In this document: positions 56,708 through 64,000 of the stretch, piece after piece
Layout: every line of letters begins with the position of its first letter
Position numbering within the stretch: the first letter of the stretch is position 1
DNA from: Clostridia bacterium
Lineage (GTDB): Bacteria > Bacillota > Clostridia > Oscillospirales > CAG-272
Assembly: GCA_017407835.1 (NCBI GenBank)
Contig: JAFQVV010000006.1
Span: 5,809 to 69,808 of the forward strand
DNA length: 64,000 nucleotides
Direction: 5' to 3'
The notes under the pieces: model-generated
Seen by the model: only the letters and a program-made list of their open reading frames with translations
Database searches by the model: none
Told to the model about the DNA's origin: nothing
Translations under genes and position numbers: made by a program

Positions 56708-58147
56708 TTATCCGCAATGGGTGCCGTCGCAGTCGCCGCAGGATGAGCAGTCACCGCAGGCGATCTCGCCGCCATCGGCGGCATCGGCCACCTGAAGCAT
56801 GATGGCGCATTCCATACGCTTCTTGAACAGCTCACAGCCGTACTTGTATGTACCGGTGATTGAGCCGGTGGCATGGTAGGCGTTGGCGGCGCATCCGCCG
56901 GCGCACCAGAGCCTTGCCCAGCAGTCAGCGCATTCGGGCTTGGCGTAGACGTTGCACTGTCTGAACTCGTCCCGCAGGGCTTCCTTCTTCACGCCGTCCC
57001 AGATGTTGCCCATGCAGAAGCGCTCGTCACCGACGAACTGGTGGCAGGGGTAGAGGTCGCCCCAGGGGGTGACGGCAAAATACTCGCTGCCCGAACCGCA
57101 TCCCGCCACCCGCTTATAGATGCAGGGGCCGTGGGTCAGGTCGATCATGTAGTGGTAGAAGGTAAAGGGACGTCCCTCGCGCTTGCGGCGCAGCATTTCC
57201 TTCGCCAGGATCTCGTACTGCTCGAAGAGGATGGGCAAATCCTCCTCGGTGAGGGCGCTGGGATCGTCGGGAGAGCAAACCACCGGTTCCATACTCAGCT
57301 GGTCAAAGCCGAGGTCGGCCATGTGGAAGATATCGTTGGTAAAGTCGGTGTTGTGGTGGGTGAAGGTGCCGCGCATATAGTAGCCCTCACCGCCCCGGCT
57401 CTCCACGAAACGCTTAAACTTGGGAACGATGTTGGCATAGCTTCCCTTGCCTGCGTAGTCCACGCGGAAGCGGTCATGCACCTCAGGGCGGCCGTCAAGC
57501 GAGAGCACGACATTATGCATCTCGCGATTGCAGAAGTCGATGACATCATCATCGACCAGCACGCCGTTGGTGGTGAGGGTGAAGCGGAAGTTCTTGCCTG
57601 CCGCCTGCTCGATGGAGCGAGCGTACTCGACCAACTGTTTGACCACGTCCCAGTTCATCAGCGGCTCACCGCCGAAGAAGTCCACCTCAAGGTTTCGGCG
57701 TCCGGTGGAATTCTCCACCAGAAAATCCAGCGCACGCTTACCGGTCTCGAAGGACATGAGGGCGCGGTCGCCGTGATATTTGCCCTGGCTGGCAAAGCAG
57801 TAGGAGCAATTGAGGTTGCAGGTATGGGCGATGTGCAGGCAGAGTGCCTTGATGCAGGTATTGTTGGCTTTCAGGTTGACCGCCGCATCCCGGAAGGTGT
57901 CGTCAGAGAAGAGCTTTCCTGCATCCCGCAAGGCGGTGATATCCTCATAGCAGGCCGCAAGCTCGGCCTCGTTCACGTCCTCCAGATGGCCGTATTTTGC
58001 CATCATGGATGCGATCAGCGCATCGCGGGGGGTATCGGCGTAAGCGGCGATCATGTCATAGGCCACCTCATCCACCACATGGACCGAGCCGCTGTTGACG
58101 TCCAGGACGATATTGCATCCGTTAAGTTTATACTGGTGAATCATCAT
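56708..58147 (-). CDS. scfB: SCIFF (ranthipeptide) radical SAM/SPASM maturase
   Basis: IVLDVNSGSVH N-terminus, CNLNCSYC, DFFGGEP, SPASM cysteines; adjacent to SCIFF peptide. Confidence 0.96.
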   Translation of the reverse strand: MMIHQYKLNGCNIVLDVNSGSVHVVDEVAYDMIAAYADTPRDALIASMMAKYGHLEDVNEAELAACYEDITALRDAGKLFSDDTFRDAAVNLKANNTCIKALCLHIAHTCNLNCSYCFASQGKYHGDRALMSFETGKRALDFLVENSTGRRNLEVDFFGGEPLMNWDVVKQLVEYARSIEQAAGKNFRFTLTTNGVLVDDDVIDFCNREMHNVVLSLDGRPEVHDRFRVDYAGKGSYANIVPKFKRFVESRGGEGYYMRGTFTHHNTDFTNDIFHMADLGFDQLSMEPVVCSPDDPSALTEEDLPILFEQYEILAKEMLRRKREGRPFTFYHYMIDLTHGPCIYKRVAGCGSGSEYFAVTPWGDLYPCHQFVGDERFCMGNIWDGVKKEALRDEFRQCNVYAKPECADCWARLWCAGGCAANAYHATGSITGTYKYGCELFKKRMECAIMLQVADAADGGEIACGDCSSCGDCDGTHCG

Positions 58148-58226
58148 TTTCTCCGTTGATCTTTCTCTCAAATGGCGAGGGCAGAAAAATACCGCCCATG
58201 GGGGGGCGGTATTTTTCTGCCAACAC

Positions 58227-58379
58227 TTATTTCTTGGCGTTCTTGTTTTCGCACTTCTGATTGGCAACACCGCAGGAGGTCTTGCAAGCCGACTGGCAGG
58301 AGGTCTGGCACTCGCCGCAGCCGCCGTTCTTGACGCTCTTTGCGAGGTCACGAGTGGTAATGGTCTGAATTCTCTTCAT
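58227..58379 (-). CDS. scfA: Six-cysteine SCIFF ranthipeptide precursor
   Basis: GGCGECQTSCQSACKTSCGVANQKCE signature. Confidence 0.97.
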   Translation of the reverse strand: MKRIQTITTRDLAKSVKNGGCGECQTSCQSACKTSCGVANQKCENKNAKK

Positions 58380-58535
58380 GATGTAACCCTCTTTCGAGAT
58401 GGAATATGGATAGTTTATTATACCATGCAATCCGGAGATTGTCAAGATTCCGCGCGAATTTTCTCGGATTTATTCTTCGATGCCCCCAAGATAACCCTCT
58501 CACATACATCCCCATGAATATTTTTTCAAAACCTC

Positions 58536-58564
58536 TTGACAAGACGGTAGGTTTGTGCTATGAT
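58536..58564 (+). promoter_or_regulatory. Sigma-A promoter of the aro-phe operon
   Basis: TTGACA-17 bp-TATGAT with TG extension. Confidence 0.85.
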
Positions 58565-58624
58565 AAACCGCAGATAGCTCTCTATCACGGTAAAGTCCCG
58601 TTATCGGAAGGAAACGAAAAGAAA

Positions 58625-58720
58625 ATGAATCTCATCTGCTCTGCATACTTTTTCTTTTTCTTTTTTAGCTTTGCGTTTTATTTTCGCAAGGCCTTTTGTC
58701 GTTCCACTGCCGAAGCATGA
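58625..58720 (+). CDS. Phe/Tyr-rich attenuator leader peptide (31 aa)
   Basis: MNLICSAYFFFFFFSFAFYFRKAFCRSTAEA with 10 Phe and 2 Tyr; lies between promoter and terminator upstream of aroF. Confidence 0.8.
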   Translation: MNLICSAYFFFFFFSFAFYFRKAFCRSTAEA

Positions 58721-58752
58721 TATAACGGGCAACACCGTCACATCAAACGACC

Positions 58753-58786
58753 AGCCGCAGTGAAACGACACTGCGGCTTTTCTGTT
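58753..58786 (+). terminator. Attenuator terminator of the aro-phe operon
   Basis: AGCCGCAGTG-AAACGA-CACTGCGGCT followed by TTTCTGTT; alternative pairing with 58697-58710. Confidence 0.85.
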
Positions 58787-58826
58787 CGCAGTACCGACCG
58801 GCGGTAAATTTCAGGAGAAAAATACC

Positions 58827-59837
58827 ATGATTGCAAAACTCGTAAAACATCCCGATCAACACAAAGTAGACGAATTGTTGATTCGTCTTTCCGAGATGGG
58901 TGTCAAAGGACAGCCCATTCAAGGCGGCGAAACCATGGTTATCGCCATCATCGGCGATACCACAAAGGTCGATCAGGACTTTCTTCACGCGCAGGATATC
59001 ATTGAAGATGTCACGCGAATCCAAGAGCCCTACAAACTCGCCTGCCGCAAAATTCATCCCACCGATACCGTTGTTACGGTCGGCGGGAACGCAGCCATTG
59101 GCGGCGGGAACTTTGCCATGATTGCAGGTCCCTGCTCGGTCGAATCGCGCGATCAGCTCTGCACCATTGCCGCATCGGTCAAAGCATCCGGGGCAACCAT
59201 TCTGCGCGGCGGTGCCTTCAAGCCTCGCACCTCCCCTTATGCTTTCCAGGGGATGCGCGGCGAGGGCATTGATCTGCTCATCGAGGCCAAGCGTCAGACC
59301 GGACTGCCCATCGTCACCGAAATCATGGATATTTCTCAGCTCCCCCTCTTTGAAGAAGTGGATATGATCCAGGTCGGCGCACGCAATATGCAGAACTTTG
59401 AGCTGCTCAAGGAGCTGGGCAGACTGCGCCGCCCCATTCTGCTCAAGCGGGGACTTTGCGCAACGCTGGATGAGCTGCTGATGTCCGCCGAGTATATCAT
59501 GGCGGGGGGCAACACCCAGGTTGTCCTCTGCGAGCGCGGCATGCGCACCTTTGAGACAGCTACCCGAAACACGCTTGATCTTTCCTGTGTCCCTGTACTC
59601 AAGGCACGCACTCACCTGCCCATCATCATTGATCCCTCCCACGCGACGGGCAAATCGGCATACGTTGCCCCCCTTGCGCTGGCAGCGGCCGCAGTCGGTG
59701 CTGACGGGCTGATTATTGAAGTGCACAACAATCCCGCCCGTGCCGTCTGCGACGGACCGCAGTCGCTGACGCCCGACGCATTCGATACACTGGCAAACCA
59801 GGTTCGCGCCATCCTGCCCGCCGCATATAAATATTAA
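58827..59837 (+). CDS. aroF: DAHP synthase (type I-beta with N-terminal regulatory domain)
   Basis: IAGPCSVES, GGAFKPRTSPY, GARNMQN, CERG and DPSHATG motifs. Confidence 0.95.
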   Translation: MIAKLVKHPDQHKVDELLIRLSEMGVKGQPIQGGETMVIAIIGDTTKVDQDFLHAQDIIEDVTRIQEPYKLACRKIHPTDTVVTVGGNAAIGGGNFAMIAGPCSVESRDQLCTIAASVKASGATILRGGAFKPRTSPYAFQGMRGEGIDLLIEAKRQTGLPIVTEIMDISQLPLFEEVDMIQVGARNMQNFELLKELGRLRRPILLKRGLCATLDELLMSAEYIMAGGNTQVVLCERGMRTFETATRNTLDLSCVPVLKARTHLPIIIDPSHATGKSAYVAPLALAAAAVGADGLIIEVHNNPARAVCDGPQSLTPDAFDTLANQVRAILPAAYKY

Positions 59838-59876
59838 ATGATAACTCCGCCATCGAAACCAAAGGATGAATGTATC

Positions 59877-60899
59877 ATGTATGATGTTTTGATTGAGCGC
59901 GGACTGCTGTCCGCCGTCGGTGCAAAATCGGCTGAGGTTCTCTCCCCCGGCCGAACCATGGTTGTAACCGATGAACATGTCGCCCCCCTCTACGCCGATA
60001 CGGTATTGACAAGTTTGCACCGAGCAGGTTTTGATCCTGCACTGACCGTCCTTCCCGCAGGAGAATCCACCAAATGCGGTACCCAGTACATCGCCCTGCT
60101 CGAGAAGATGGCAGAGGCCGGGCTGACCCGTTCTGATTGTGTCATCGCGCTGGGCGGCGGCGTCATCGGTGATCTGGTGGGATTTGCCGCTGCCACCTAT
60201 CTGCGCGGAATTGCCGTTGTGCAAATTCCCACCACCCTCCTCGCCGCCGTTGATTCTTCGGTTGGCGGCAAAACCGCCATTGACCTCGCTGCCGGCAAGA
60301 ATCTGGTAGGGGCTTTCCACCGTCCTGTTCGCGTTCTCTGCGATCCCGACACCCTGGCCACCCTTCCGCCCGAACAGCTGGCGGCGGGCATGGCGGAATC
60401 CATCAAATACGGTGTCCTCTTCGATCAATCTCTCTTTGATCTGCTCGCACACGGAGCGCCGCAGGATCTGACCGAAACAATTTCCCGCTGCGTCGCTCTG
60501 AAGCAGGCGGTGGTCTCCCGTGACTTCACCGACCGCGGAGAGCGCCAGCTGCTCAATCTCGGGCACACCTTCGGGCACGCCATTGAAGCCTGTTCACACT
60601 ATCGCATTCTGCACGGCGAGGCCGTTGCCATCGGGATGCGCATGGCGGCACGCGCCGCCGTCCTGCTCGGCGTGGCAGAGCTTGACTGCACCGACGCCAT
60701 CACCGATGCGCTGACCGCCGCAGGACTGCCCACCCGCGCCGAATTTACCGCCGCCGAGCTGACCGCCGCCGCCCTGCACGACAAAAAGCGCATGGGCGAC
60801 ACCCTCAAGCTGGTGCTCCCTGTGGAGATCGGCCATTGCGCGCTCCATCCCTTCCCGGTGGATCGACTGGGCGAGCTGATGGAAGAGGTGTGCCGATGA
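59877..60899 (+). CDS. aroB: 3-dehydroquinate synthase
   Basis: GGGVIGD, PTTLLAAVDSSVGGKT and LNLGHTFGHAIE motifs. Confidence 0.96.
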   Translation: MYDVLIERGLLSAVGAKSAEVLSPGRTMVVTDEHVAPLYADTVLTSLHRAGFDPALTVLPAGESTKCGTQYIALLEKMAEAGLTRSDCVIALGGGVIGDLVGFAAATYLRGIAVVQIPTTLLAAVDSSVGGKTAIDLAAGKNLVGAFHRPVRVLCDPDTLATLPPEQLAAGMAESIKYGVLFDQSLFDLLAHGAPQDLTETISRCVALKQAVVSRDFTDRGERQLLNLGHTFGHAIEACSHYRILHGEAVAIGMRMAARAAVLLGVAELDCTDAITDALTAAGLPTRAEFTAAELTAAALHDKKRMGDTLKLVLPVEIGHCALHPFPVDRLGELMEEVCR

Positions 60900-62164
60900 T
60901 CCGTACCCTCATGCCGGGGCGGGTCTGCCGGGGAAGCCTCCCCGCTATCCCCTCCAAATCGGATGCCCACCGCCTGCTCCTCTGCGCGGCACTGGCCGAC
61001 GCCCCCACCGAGATCGAGGTAGGTAAGGGAGAGCTTTCGGCCGATATTCACGCCACCATGGCCTGCATTCGGGTGCTGGGGGGAGATGTGACTGCGGAGG
61101 GCGAGATCCTTCGGGTTACGCCCATCAGATTTTCAAAGAGTAATGAGTCCATCCTCTGCAACTGCGGGGAAAGCGGCTCAACCGCCCGTTTTCTGCTCCC
61201 CATCGCCGCCGCGGCCGGGCACATCACCCCCATCACTCTGTCGGGGCACGGCCGCCTGCCCCTGCGCCCCTTTGCGCCGCTGTGCGATGCACTCCGTGCC
61301 CGGGGCGCTGACATCTACCGCGACCTGCTTCCCATCACCGTCCGCGGGGGACTGCAGGCAGGGGAGTTCACCATCGCGGGAAACATCAGCTCCCAGTATA
61401 TCACGGGGCTTCTTCTTGCCCTGCCCCTGCTGGAAGGGGACAGCCGCATCACCCTCACCACACCCCTGGAATCCCGGGGCTATGTGGACATGACCCTCTC
61501 CACCCTGGCCCGGTTCGGCATCCATGTCAAGGCCGATGCGGCCGGCTGGAAGGTCCCTGCCGCCCCCTACCGATCCCCCGGCCGCATCACCGCCGATGGC
61601 GACTGGTCGAACGCCGCCTTCTGGCTTTGCGCCGGCGCGGTCAGCGCACCAATGACGGTCACGGGTCTATCGTCGGGAAGCCGGCAGGGCGACCGCCGCA
61701 TCACCGATATTCTTGCCGCCTTCGGCGCCCGGGTCACAGTGGGTGGCGATGCCGTCACCGTCTCTCCCGCCCCTCTGCGAGGTGTCACCCTGTCAGTGGC
61801 CGACATTCCCGACCTCGTCCCCATTCTGGCGGTAGTTGCCGCCGCGGCGAAGGGAGAGACCCGCTTCATCGACGCCGGCCGACTTCGCCTCAAGGAAAGC
61901 GACCGACTGGCCACCGTCTCGGCCATGATCTGCGCCCTGGGCGGCGACGCCGACATTGACGGCGACACCCTCATCATCCGGGGCGGAAAGCCCCTCTGCG
62001 GGGGCACCGTGGACAGCGCCAACGACCACCGCATTGCCATGTCGGCCGCCGTGGCCGCCCTGCTCTGTACCGGAACCGTGGAGCTGCAGGGTGCCGAGGC
62101 TGTGGAAAAATCCTACCCCGCCTTCTGGACCGACTATGACCGGCTGAGCGGTGAACAAATTTGA
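60896..62164 (+). CDS. aroA: EPSP synthase
   Basis: PSKSDAHR, GESGSTAR, SSQY, KESDR and DHRIAM motifs. Confidence 0.96.
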   Translation: MIRTLMPGRVCRGSLPAIPSKSDAHRLLLCAALADAPTEIEVGKGELSADIHATMACIRVLGGDVTAEGEILRVTPIRFSKSNESILCNCGESGSTARFLLPIAAAAGHITPITLSGHGRLPLRPFAPLCDALRARGADIYRDLLPITVRGGLQAGEFTIAGNISSQYITGLLLALPLLEGDSRITLTTPLESRGYVDMTLSTLARFGIHVKADAAGWKVPAAPYRSPGRITADGDWSNAAFWLCAGAVSAPMTVTGLSSGSRQGDRRITDILAAFGARVTVGGDAVTVSPAPLRGVTLSVADIPDLVPILAVVAAAAKGETRFIDAGRLRLKESDRLATVSAMICALGGDADIDGDTLIIRGGKPLCGGTVDSANDHRIAMSAAVAALLCTGTVELQGAEAVEKSYPAFWTDYDRLSGEQI

Positions 62165-62201
62165 CAATTACGATGCATCTGCGGATGCAGAAAGGATCAT
62201 A

Positions 62202-63302
62202 ATGAGCAGTCAATTCGGACATCAGCTGAAGATCAGCATATTCGGGCAATCCCACTCCGCCGGCATCGGTGTAGTCATCGATGGCCTGCCTGCAGGGGAA
62301 CCCATTGACTTAGAGCAAATCGCCGCCTTCATGGCGCGCCGCGCACCGGGCAACAGCCCTGCCTCCACGGCACGCAAGGAAGCCGACACACCGCAGATTC
62401 TCTCAGGGCTTTTCGAAGGACGCACCTGCGGTGCCCCTCTCGCCGCCGTCATTGCCAATACCGACACGCGATCGGGGGATTACGCCGCAATCGCCGATAT
62501 GCCCCGTCCCGCACACGCCGATTATACCGCCCACGTCAAATACGGCGGTGCCAATGATGTCCGCGGCGGGGGGCATTTCTCGGGTCGTCTCACCGCGCCC
62601 CTCTGCTTTGCCGGCGCGGTCTGCGCACAGATTCTCGCCAGACGAGGCGTCACCATCGGTGCGCACGCCGCAACCATCGGCACAACCTTCGACGAAAGCT
62701 TTGATCCAGTCGCTGTGACAGCGGACGAGCTTCGCGCAATCGCACCAAAGCCCTTCCCTACCATCTCGGATGCATCGGCCGAAGCGATGCTGGCCGAGAT
62801 CGCCGAGGCAAAAGCGAGGGGCGATTCGATGGGGGGCGTGATCGAATGCTTTGCGGTCGGTCTACCCGTGGGACTTGGCGAGCCGATGTTCGGCGGCGTT
62901 GAGGGACGGATCGCCGAGGCCGTCTTCGGCATTCCCGCCGTCAAGGGGCTGGAGTTCGGTTCGGGCTTTTACGGCTCAACCCTCTGCGGCTCGGAGAACA
63001 ATGATCCCTTCCGTACCGAAAACGGGCGCATTGTCACCGAAACCAACAACCACGGCGGCATCCTCGGCGGCATCACCTCGGGTATGCCCCTCGTTCTGCG
63101 CGCCGCCATTAAACCCACCCCCACACTGATGCAGGAGCAGCAGACAATCAGCTTCTCCCGCGGTGAGAACGCGATTCTCCCGCCCAAAGGACGCCACGAT
63201 CCCTGCATCGTTCCCCGCGCCGTCCCCGTCATCGAAGCCGCCGTTGCCGCTGTTCTGCTCGATCTGTGGCTTGAGTCGGGCAGTTTCCCGAAAGGAGCAT
63301 AA
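62202..63302 (+). CDS. aroC: Chorismate synthase
   Basis: FGQSH, RPAHAD, GGGHFSGR, GGITSG and GRHDPC motifs. Confidence 0.96.
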   Translation: MSSQFGHQLKISIFGQSHSAGIGVVIDGLPAGEPIDLEQIAAFMARRAPGNSPASTARKEADTPQILSGLFEGRTCGAPLAAVIANTDTRSGDYAAIADMPRPAHADYTAHVKYGGANDVRGGGHFSGRLTAPLCFAGAVCAQILARRGVTIGAHAATIGTTFDESFDPVAVTADELRAIAPKPFPTISDASAEAMLAEIAEAKARGDSMGGVIECFAVGLPVGLGEPMFGGVEGRIAEAVFGIPAVKGLEFGSGFYGSTLCGSENNDPFRTENGRIVTETNNHGGILGGITSGMPLVLRAAIKPTPTLMQEQQTISFSRGENAILPPKGRHDPCIVPRAVPVIEAAVAAVLLDLWLESGSFPKGA

Positions 63303-63307
63303 TCCTC

Positions 63308-64000
63308 ATGTCGGATAAACCCATCGATCTTTCTGTTCTCCGCACGCGCATCAATGCCATTGATGGCGAGCTGCGGGCACTTTTCCTTGAGCGGATGGAC
63401 ATCGCCGCCGATGTCGCCGAATACAAGCGTTCGGTGGGCATGGCTGTGCTCGATCCCGCGCGCGAGCAGGCAATTCTCGACCATCTTTGTATCGGTCTTG
63501 ACGCCGCTTACGCCGAGGCGGTCGCAAGCCTGTGGAAACAGATTTTTGAGCTGTCCCGCGGTTATCAGCACCGCCTGCTGGAGAGAGATACCTGCCCACA
63601 GGCATCTGCCCTCCGTCAGCACATCGCCGCGCAGAGCGAATTGCCTTCCCACGCATCTGTCGCCTGCCAGGGACGGCAGGGAGCATATGCCCACCGTGCC
63701 GCCGAAGCAATCTTCACCTCCCCCGATGTTACCTTTTTCCCCGATTGGAGCGCCGTCACCGATGCCGTGCTTGACGGGCGGTGCGACTACGGTGTGCTGC
63801 CCATAGAAAACAGCACACGCGGCTCGGTCAGTGCCGTTTATGAGCTGCTCCGTTCGCGTAAAGTACATATTGTACGCGGATGCCGACTTGCTATTCGTCA
63901 TGCGCTCCTCGGGCTTCCGGGGGCAAAGCTCTCCGATATTCGCGAGGTTCGCTCACACGAGCAAGCGCTCGGACAGTGCGCAGGATGGCTGGATACCCAT
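63308..64000 (+). CDS. pheA: Bifunctional chorismate mutase/prephenate dehydratase (partial, runs off window end)
   Basis: Manual translation: LRTRINAID...LFLERM...K...DPARE (CM domain), QGRQGAY, LPIENST and SHEQALGQC (PDT domain); AAGGAG RBS. Confidence 0.93.
   Translation, partial: MSDKPIDLSVLRTRINAIDGELRALFLERMDIAADVAEYKRSVGMAVLDPAREQAILDHLCIGLDAAYAEAVASLWKQIFELSRGYQHRLLERDTCPQASALRQHIAAQSELPSHASVACQGRQGAYAHRAAEAIFTSPDVTFFPDWSAVTDAVLDGRCDYGVLPIENSTRGSVSAVYELLRSRKVHIVRGCRLAIRHALLGLPGAKLSDIREVRSHEQALGQCAGWLDTH

Follow-up and report, generated by a model that had tools for sequence, protein, structure and literature searches.

Teaching accounts mostly present transcription attenuation by a translated leader peptide as a feature of Proteobacteria and Actinobacteria, and in Firmicutes amino-acid genes are most often controlled by T-box riboswitches. 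Panina et al. in 2003 and Vitreschak et al. in 2008 reportedly treat aromatic regulation in Firmicutes in terms of T-boxes and TRAP. The present analysis concerns the region upstream of aroF in a Clostridia bacterium (Oscillospirales, CAG-272), contained in a stretch of 64,000 nucleotides (assembly GCA_017407835.1, contig JAFQVV010000006.1, positions 5,809 to 69,808 of the forward strand) that is called the window in the following and is numbered from its first letter. A short open reading frame (ORF) rich in Phe and Tyr codons was found there between a promoter and an intrinsic terminator, directly before the gene for 3-deoxy-7-phosphoheptulonate (DAHP) synthase. With a probability of roughly 0.85, comparative sequence evidence points to transcription attenuation of a six-gene aromatic operon by a ribosome that translates a leader peptide, an arrangement that would sense Phe-tRNA and, more weakly, Tyr-tRNA. 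The mechanism itself is textbook and not new, and the family to which the leader belongs is apparently uncatalogued.

Related leaders have been described in other lineages. In Corynebacterium glutamicum, the aroR leader with the sequence Phe-Tyr-Phe lies before the aroF operon, and read-through increases on Phe limitation (Neshat et al. 2014, as summarised in the review PMC11802643). Another candidate, uORFC-13-1, was presented with 24 representatives from Acholeplasma and unassigned environmental sequences, located solely upstream of aroF (Brewer et al. 2021, PMC8632094). As described in the text of that paper, a promoter, a ribosome-binding site (RBS) and a start codon precede a run of U that encodes Phe and is directly followed by an intrinsic terminator, and its authors proposed that the rate at which Phe is incorporated governs attenuation. 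In Bacilli, hisZ/hisS are preceded by His leader peptides, which in some Firmicutes take the place of T-boxes (Naville and Gautheret 2010, PMC2965389); aro genes are not mentioned in this article, the terms aroF, aromatic and phenylalanine having 0 occurrences each. For Clostridioides difficile 630, premature termination was mapped experimentally in the aroF 5' untranslated region (UTR), with no known riboregulator (PMC8237595). An earlier note on the window, made from the sequence alone, had known of no described Phe/Tyr leader peptide governing a full shikimate operon in Clostridia. No description of a Clostridia aroF Phe/Tyr leader was found in full-text literature searches, subscription journals lying largely outside their coverage, but aroF leaders are in print for Corynebacterium and Acholeplasma, to judge from the accounts cited above. 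As far as these accounts go, aroR and uORFC-13-1 are the nearest published relatives of the Clostridia family.

The earlier note had also proposed a promoter, a 31-codon Phe/Tyr ORF, a terminator and a complementarity of 13/14 positions between ORF and terminator, all of which were found again, at the same positions, when the sequence was read. The region is composed as follows.

58536-58564, plus strand: sigma-70-type promoter, with the -35 hexamer TTGACA (58536-58541), a 17-nt spacer with upstream TG and the -10 hexamer TATGAT (58559-58564); 11/12 consensus matches.
58573-58586, plus strand: 5'-proximal hairpin of the leader transcript, GAUAG...CUAUC, from folding and the congener alignment.
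58606-58612, plus strand: Shine-Dalgarno (SD)-like GGAAGGA, 12 nt before the leader ATG; AAGG/AGGGA is retained in congeners.
58625-58720, plus strand: leader ORF MNLICSAYFFFFFFSFAFYFRKAFCRSTAEA, 31 codons and TGA (58718-58720).
58646-58684, plus strand: presumed stall codons Y8, F9-F14, F16, F18, Y19 and F20, read from the translation.
58668-58692, plus strand: hairpin P1 inside the ORF, GCUUUGCG (58668-58675) with CGCAAGGC (58685-58692); -10.1 kcal/mol.
58697-58710, plus strand: antiterminator 5' strand (segment 2), leader codons 25-29, complementary to 58757-58770 at 13/14 positions.
58753-58786, plus strand: intrinsic terminator, stem 58753-58762/58769-58778, loop 58763-58768, T-tail 58779-58786; -18.3 kcal/mol.
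58827-59837, plus strand: aroF, DAHP synthase, the first structural gene (NF006421, 470 bits).
59838-64000, plus strand: aroB, aroA, aroC and pheA, assigned by NCBIfam; pheA runs past the window end.

Among the 31 codons of the leader, 10 encode Phe, six of them consecutively, and 2 encode Tyr. Hairpin P1, an element absent from the first reading, has its 5' arm and loop made of Phe/Tyr codons, with F18-Y19-F20 in the loop. The terminator has the sequence AGCCGCAGTG-AAACGA-CACTGCGGCT (58753-58778) followed by TTTTCTGTT, and its 10-bp stem contains 7 GC pairs and closes a 6-nt loop. Positions 58757-58770, which form the terminator 5' arm and loop, double as the antiterminator 3' strand. Base-by-base reading of this stretch against segment 2 showed a single C/A mismatch (58704/58763), and RNAduplex yielded -15.3 to -16.9 kcal/mol for segment 2 with the terminator strand. 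Four features of the trpL/pheL class were found here, namely an ORF with RBS and start codon, a cluster of cognate codons, a terminator before the first gene and an antiterminator sharing a strand with it. The hairpin at 58573-58586 forms the very 5' end of the predicted transcript and reads GACAG...CUGUC in two congeners. The heptamer AAACGAC is present twice, at 58744-58750 just 5' of the terminator and at 58763-58769 in its loop and 3' arm, and the first copy is a decoy partner of segment 2; pairing there leaves the terminator intact. As a separate observation, the +1 frame is open on the plus strand from 58671 to 58763, from the U-run to a TGA within the terminator 5' arm, and a ribosome slipping on the Phe run would read it across the antiterminator strand into the terminator.

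To look for known RNA families, the segment 57500-60000 was compared by cmscan with the whole of Rfam (4227 families; E up to 10). Neither a T-box (RF00230) nor a Phe, Trp, His or Leu leader was found, the first of these leaders being the Rfam family Phe_leader, which we take to be RF01859; just two chance-level matches appeared elsewhere in the segment. A T-box, a TRAP-like element or another known RNA family at aroF was ruled out by this absence of an Rfam match in 57500-60000. The T-box motif had already been reported as missing in the earlier note, and the cmscan result agrees with it for this segment, the genome having 13 T-box matches elsewhere. At gathering score, Rfam returned nothing in 10 related loci without a clear leader or with short upstream sequence.

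Within the genus, the region was present in 5/6 congeneric genomes with 77-82% identity. The promoter hexamers, the ATG, the stretch from GCATAC (Ala-Tyr) via the Phe run to CACTGCC and the whole terminator were near-invariant in the genus alignment, and both hexamers were unchanged in 6 congeneric sequences. The N-terminal codons of the leader were variable among congeners. The frame of the ORF was retained in five congeners, with two indels inside it of 3 nt each, namely one additional codon close to the N-terminus, seen in two genomes, and an extra Phe codon in the window; indels of 1 and 2 nt were found only outside the ORF.

Beyond the genus, aroF was surveyed with one genome per species, which provided 80 loci with AroF 59-68% identical (labelled Oscillospiraceae, Lachnospiraceae, Acutalibacteraceae, Candidatus Fimenecus and others), and upstream sequence of 300 nt or more was available for 78 of them. 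A stop-free window of 10 codons with at least 6 F/Y codons, not more than 300 nt upstream and on the gene strand, was found in 64/78 loci. The same search was positive in 3/78 loci on the reverse strand, in 2/71 loci at 600-900 nt upstream and in 2/78 shuffled sequences. Conserved Phe/Tyr codon runs upstream of the aroF of relatives had been named in the earlier note as a check on the attenuator, and this check, like that of the reading frame in the five congeners, turned out in its favour. Both synonymous codons of each amino acid are used in the family (TTT 294, TTC 67, TAC 131, TAT 127). The loci are kin and not independent, and all statistics on them are descriptive.

These data bear on the proposal that the conserved RNA of P1 and its flanks is itself the sensor, to which a protein or a small ligand would bind and thereby choose between terminator and antiterminator, the F/Y 'codons' being a by-product of a U-rich motif. 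An ATG with SD upstream in the F/Y frame was found in 64/70 loci but in only 1/70 and 3/70 for the other two frames in the same search, which is not what a by-product would show; the same can be said of intra-ORF indels that come in threes and of an F/Y run that starts 5' of P1. N-termini and lengths of the leaders vary, whereas the start, the F/Y run and the placement of the stop stay, and no Rfam family was matched. The proposal draws on P1 itself, which is unusually conserved in sequence with a near-invariant CUUU...AAGG across the family, and on the folding of 5' UTR and leader, which is stronger than that of shuffled sequences (z -3.5). The AAGG, however, pairs with a Phe codon that has a C in front of it, which accounts for its conservation. 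Taken together, an RNA that senses in place of the ORF appears highly improbable.

The leader ORFs of the family range from 14-41 codons in length, the median being 29; the median numbers of Phe and Tyr are 5 and 4, and Trp occurs in just 9 leaders. A strong hairpin with T-tract lies between leader and aroF in 71/73 leaders, 9-51 nt past the stop (135 nt for the mis-picked ORF of locus L074) and 17-131 nt before aroF. L074 was counted with this wrongly chosen ORF in the terminator count, in the first duplex test and in the ribosome-state count described below, and was left out of the 70-locus codon count; the 71-sequence alignment contains its corrected ORF. At the peptide level, conservation is confined to the F/Y run, with N-termini and lengths free to vary.

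A small hydrophobic protein with its own terminator that lies before aroF incidentally, or a chance ORF and complementarity beside a leaky terminator, might be considered instead, as the peptide is hydrophobic and has the length of a membrane segment. Conservation restricted to the F/Y run is not in line with a functional protein, and the five leader peptides searched against Pfam and NCBIfam at E up to 10 were without a match in 5/5 cases. The same arrangement is moreover always found before aroF in the family, and the ORF is the sole one of its kind in the genome. This was seen in a genome-wide scan for short ORFs with ATG and SD, an amino-acid-rich window and a terminator after them, which yielded 1262 candidates, 117 of them with terminator; among these 117, the only ORF with at least 6 F/Y/W in 8 codons was the aroF leader. 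Incidental or chance origin would also leave the locus-specific complementarity of the antiterminator unexplained, and we give it next to no credence. For leader peptides of any other amino acid the scan provided noise only, at crude thresholds that short Trp or His leaders may escape.

Two groups of loci deserve separate mention. A subtype with short leaders of 14-20 codons, Tyr runs and few Phe (L040, L053, L054, L068, L085 and L087; for example MLHSRFAYYYALYRKSRA) has flanking pairings that are different and stronger. In three metagenome-assembled genomes (MAGs) labelled Lentisphaerae or Victivallales (L050, L072 and L075), a Clostridia-like AroF (63% identity) was found with F/Y leader and terminator, either by horizontal transfer or by mis-binning.

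Covariation was assessed with family structures that were supplied by hand and then counted. For P1 and terminator in an alignment of 71 sequences, 89% of the cells were paired, compared with 37-44% when the partners were slid against each other, and 221 cells were changed on both sides as compared with 80 in shuffles (0/500). P1 alone, in a second alignment without this genus, was 86% paired and had both-side changes at 6/8 pairs.

The same hairpin accounts for a feature of the peptide that might otherwise suggest a different sensor. A motif F-[GS]-K-[AV] recurs after the F/Y run in many leaders, as might be expected of a nascent F/Y-rich arrest peptide that stalls on free Phe/Tyr in the manner of TnaC or acts in the exit tunnel, instead of responding to tRNA charging. 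The recurrent Lys-Ala/Val, however, is encoded by the 3' arm of P1, which covaries with the 5' arm, so that the motif is explained by base pairing in the RNA; F and Y readily replace each other, and the length of the run varies. TnaC-like sensing would furthermore induce a biosynthetic operon on amino-acid abundance, which is the wrong sign. An arrest peptide as the sensor was thus regarded as very improbable, although the peptide may make a contribution.

The antiterminator was examined locus by locus. In a first duplex test, the 3' part of each leader paired with its own terminator arm at -15.1 kcal/mol and with non-cognate arms at -11.7 kcal/mol, and the own arm was better in 60/71 loci. 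With a fixed window of 32 nt after P1 and the own terminator 5' arm and loop, the mean was -12.9 versus -9.8 kcal/mol after permutation (z -9.4), and 0/10,000 permutations were as low as observed. Although terminators vary from locus to locus, the 3' part of each leader finds its best partner in the arm of its own terminator. The anti-antiterminator, in which the stretch before P1 (segment 1, typically GCAGCUGAAUA) pairs with segment 2, had -18.3 versus -12.3 kcal/mol (z -16.5); 53.6% of the cells of this 1:2 helix were paired in a single register across the family, and the window itself had -9.5 kcal/mol. The family is therefore predicted to hold the full classical set of pairings 1:2, 2:3 and 3:4, with P1 as the apical hairpin between 1 and 2.

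A covariance model, termed R1, was built from 70 loci, none of them of this genus, with a structure made of P1 and the outer helix. Against the 64-kb window it gave one significant match, at 58625-58723 (45.5 bits, E 1.4e-7; next E 0.16), in which P1 fits fully and the outer helix does not, and in the whole genome this match was the single one. A wider sample was composed of 61 genomes of the same order, one per genus or family, and an AroF match was found in 32/61 of them. R1 matched once each in 15 of these genomes, every time just upstream of the AroF match, and in none of the 29 genomes without AroF match. By automatic criteria, a leader with terminator was present at 15/29 aroF loci outside the genus (26 genomes), L115 among the 15 being doubtful; several of the loci failing these criteria sit inside an operon. 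The window leader, with its R1 match directly upstream of aroF and a terminator after it, has the marks of the clostridial aroF Phe/Tyr family. Judged by sequence it is no singular case but belongs, with a bias towards Phe, to a family that is widespread in Clostridia and apparently uncatalogued. As to aroF itself, an AroF match (E up to 1e-40) was seen in 9/30 same-family genomes outside the genus (G007-G036, one per genus), or in 14/36 together with 5 matching congeners. Many same-family relatives may be without aromatic amino-acid synthesis, or may have another DAHP synthase class.

The consequences of ribosome position were explored by folding only those parts of the RNA that a ribosome would not cover, with the transcript ending at the terminator loop and the 3' arm of the terminator not yet made. 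The terminator 5' arm was sequestered to at least 60% in 54-60/71 loci with the ribosome on the F/Y codons, as opposed to 11/71 with the ribosome at the stop. For the nascent RNA of the window, placing the A site at F9 (-31 kcal/mol) or F20 (-20 kcal/mol) gave a fold that contains the antiterminator; with the A site at F14 or F16 another fold arises that still occupies part of the terminator arm. When the ribosome is placed at the stop, a structure of just -2.5 kcal/mol is left and the terminator is unopposed.

From these results, an attenuator with mutually exclusive antiterminator and terminator, as put forward in the earlier note and supported by the comparative evidence, would operate in the following way. 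Transcription would start at about 58571, and the leader of 31 codons would be translated while being made. If Phe-tRNA is scarce (or, to a lesser degree here, Tyr-tRNA), the ribosome would stall on codons 8-20 with its edge at or before about 58694; these are presumably the effective codons, because a ribosome held at F24 would itself mask the antiterminator strand. Stalling would leave 58697-58710 free to pair with 58757-58770 once this stretch has emerged, the terminator 5' arm and loop would be occupied, and RNA polymerase would read through into aroF. If charged tRNA is plentiful, the ribosome would reach the TGA at 58718-58720 and cover about 58703-58730, the terminator at 58753-58778 would form, and transcription would end at the T-tract. 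P1 (58668-58692), which the ribosome has to open on its way, probably serves as a pause or coupling hairpin.

Several observations weigh against this reading or limit its support. At equilibrium, the full-length leader keeps the terminator despite a stalled ribosome in 53-60/71 loci and in the window; since the full transcript prefers the terminator, the switch must be kinetically ordered, as in trp, if it operates as proposed. The sequestered fraction in the window differs little between ribosome states, with 0.6-0.7 when stalled versus 0.5 at the stop, and the nascent RNA of the window forms the antiterminator without a ribosome as well. The SD-like AAGGA (58608-58612) ends 12 nt 5' of the ATG, at the long end of usual spacings. 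The family 1:2 helix is poorly kept in the window, where 8/14 pairs are non-canonical in the R1 alignment, and an alternative 1:2 register of 11 pairs exists there that is kept partly in the genus. As to compensatory changes in the antiterminator, which had been suggested as a test, the duplexes were stronger with own than with permuted arms, but the count in a single register on the MAFFT alignment was weak (54.1% paired versus 51.6% shuffled; 61 double changes versus 51 shuffled, 68/500), and the terminator is invariant in the genus, which therefore gives no compensatory test. The weakness of the single-register count is attributed to loops, offsets and registers that differ between subgroups, and per-locus duplex tests were used for this reason. 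RNAalifold on the 70-sequence core alignment (A4) provided 0 consensus pairs. Furthermore, p-values are overstated because related loci are kin, and some of the relatives matched by R1 were in its seed (e.g. G042 is L023 and G057 is L015), so that only the specificity of the R1 matches counts.

The genes downstream were confirmed by NCBIfam as aroF-aroB-aroA-aroC-pheA. The pheA product combines chorismate mutase and prephenate dehydratase and has a full length of 384 amino acids beyond the window; it is followed, outside the window, by an aroE/aroK fusion of 413 amino acids and then by a LacI-type regulator. The six genes aroF-aroB-aroA-aroC-pheA-aroE/aroK are likely transcribed as one unit, because they abut or overlap. 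The operon, which the earlier note had called a full shikimate operon, does not hold the whole pathway: it extends to aroE/aroK beyond the window, and aroQ (the single type II dehydroquinase of the genome) and tyrA (its single prephenate dehydrogenase) are located on other contigs. A type I dehydroquinase was searched for in the genome and none was found. Upstream of tyrA, no short F/Y-rich ORF was apparent in 260 nt read by eye. Divergent from the aro leader lie a SCIFF (six-Cys-in-45) ranthipeptide gene (58227-58376, minus strand) and its radical-SAM maturase (56708-58150, minus strand), with a perfect promoter of 12/12 matches and TG at 58445-58417 (minus strand).

Five of the 13 T-box matches in the whole genome are above gathering score, and the T-boxes precede pheS, tyrS, serS, a class I synthetase gene, an ilvB-like gene and others. 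The T-boxes at C30:27079-27310 and C23:3644-3881, outside the window, lie before pheS and tyrS, one each. With these and the aroF leader, the genome would therefore sense the charging of Phe and Tyr tRNA by two different devices. Other T-boxes (C24:9317-9568, C24:12112-12351, C25:33693-33953 and C33:22255-22492) precede genes for PaaK-like AMP-binding ligases and an IorA-like TPP oxidoreductase, and these could be an arylacetate-to-aromatic-amino-acid route under tRNA control.

If the attenuator operates as proposed, an aroF leader would place the first step of aromatic amino-acid synthesis under attenuation in many Clostridia of gut and rumen, in the present genome beside the T-boxes of pheS and tyrS. 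Somewhat short of an even chance, in our estimate, is the broader idea of an order-wide, possibly Bacillota-wide, uncatalogued family of dual Phe/Tyr-sensing attenuators at aroF in many Clostridia, where textbooks put T-boxes. Such a family may be the lineage of uORFC-13-1 and may explain the premature termination at aroF of C. difficile, of which it would give a testable account, and the ratio between Phe and Tyr codons (10:2 in the window leader, with a family median of about 5:4) may track the presence of pheA or tyrA in the operon. An Rfam or NCBIfam entry for the family would improve annotation, with fewer ORFs missed or called hypothetical proteins. It would also provide a Phe/Tyr-responsive switch for the engineering of Clostridia.

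Compared with known systems, the window leader most resembles enterobacterial pheL-pheA (Rfam Phe_leader) and trpL in having a short translated leader, a run of Phe codons, a terminator and a competing antiterminator. As in pheL-pheA, the position of the ribosome would decide between the folds, and the operon includes pheA. It differs in its Clostridia host, in Tyr codons mixed with the Phe codons, in the extra hairpin P1 inside the ORF and in the lack of an Rfam match at E up to 10, and it fronts DAHP synthase and the common pathway and not pheA alone. With the T-box riboswitch (RF00230) it would share the sensing of tRNA charging and the choice between terminator and antiterminator, but the aroF leader would sense via codon translation, whereas the T-box binds the tRNA directly. 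The His leaders of Bacilli are, as far as the cited account shows, a precedent for 'regular' leader peptides in Firmicutes, with another amino acid, other genes and other lineages. In C. glutamicum, a member of another phylum, aroR likewise encodes a leader peptide with aromatic residues in front of an operon for DAHP synthase; its aromatic run is much shorter, and the likeness, taken from the review, is one of description. The gross features given for uORFC-13-1 in the text of its report, a position upstream of aroF, a Phe-codon upstream ORF and an adjacent terminator, are all present in the window leader, a comparison made by text description only with a candidate that was reported just from Acholeplasma and unassigned environmental sequences.

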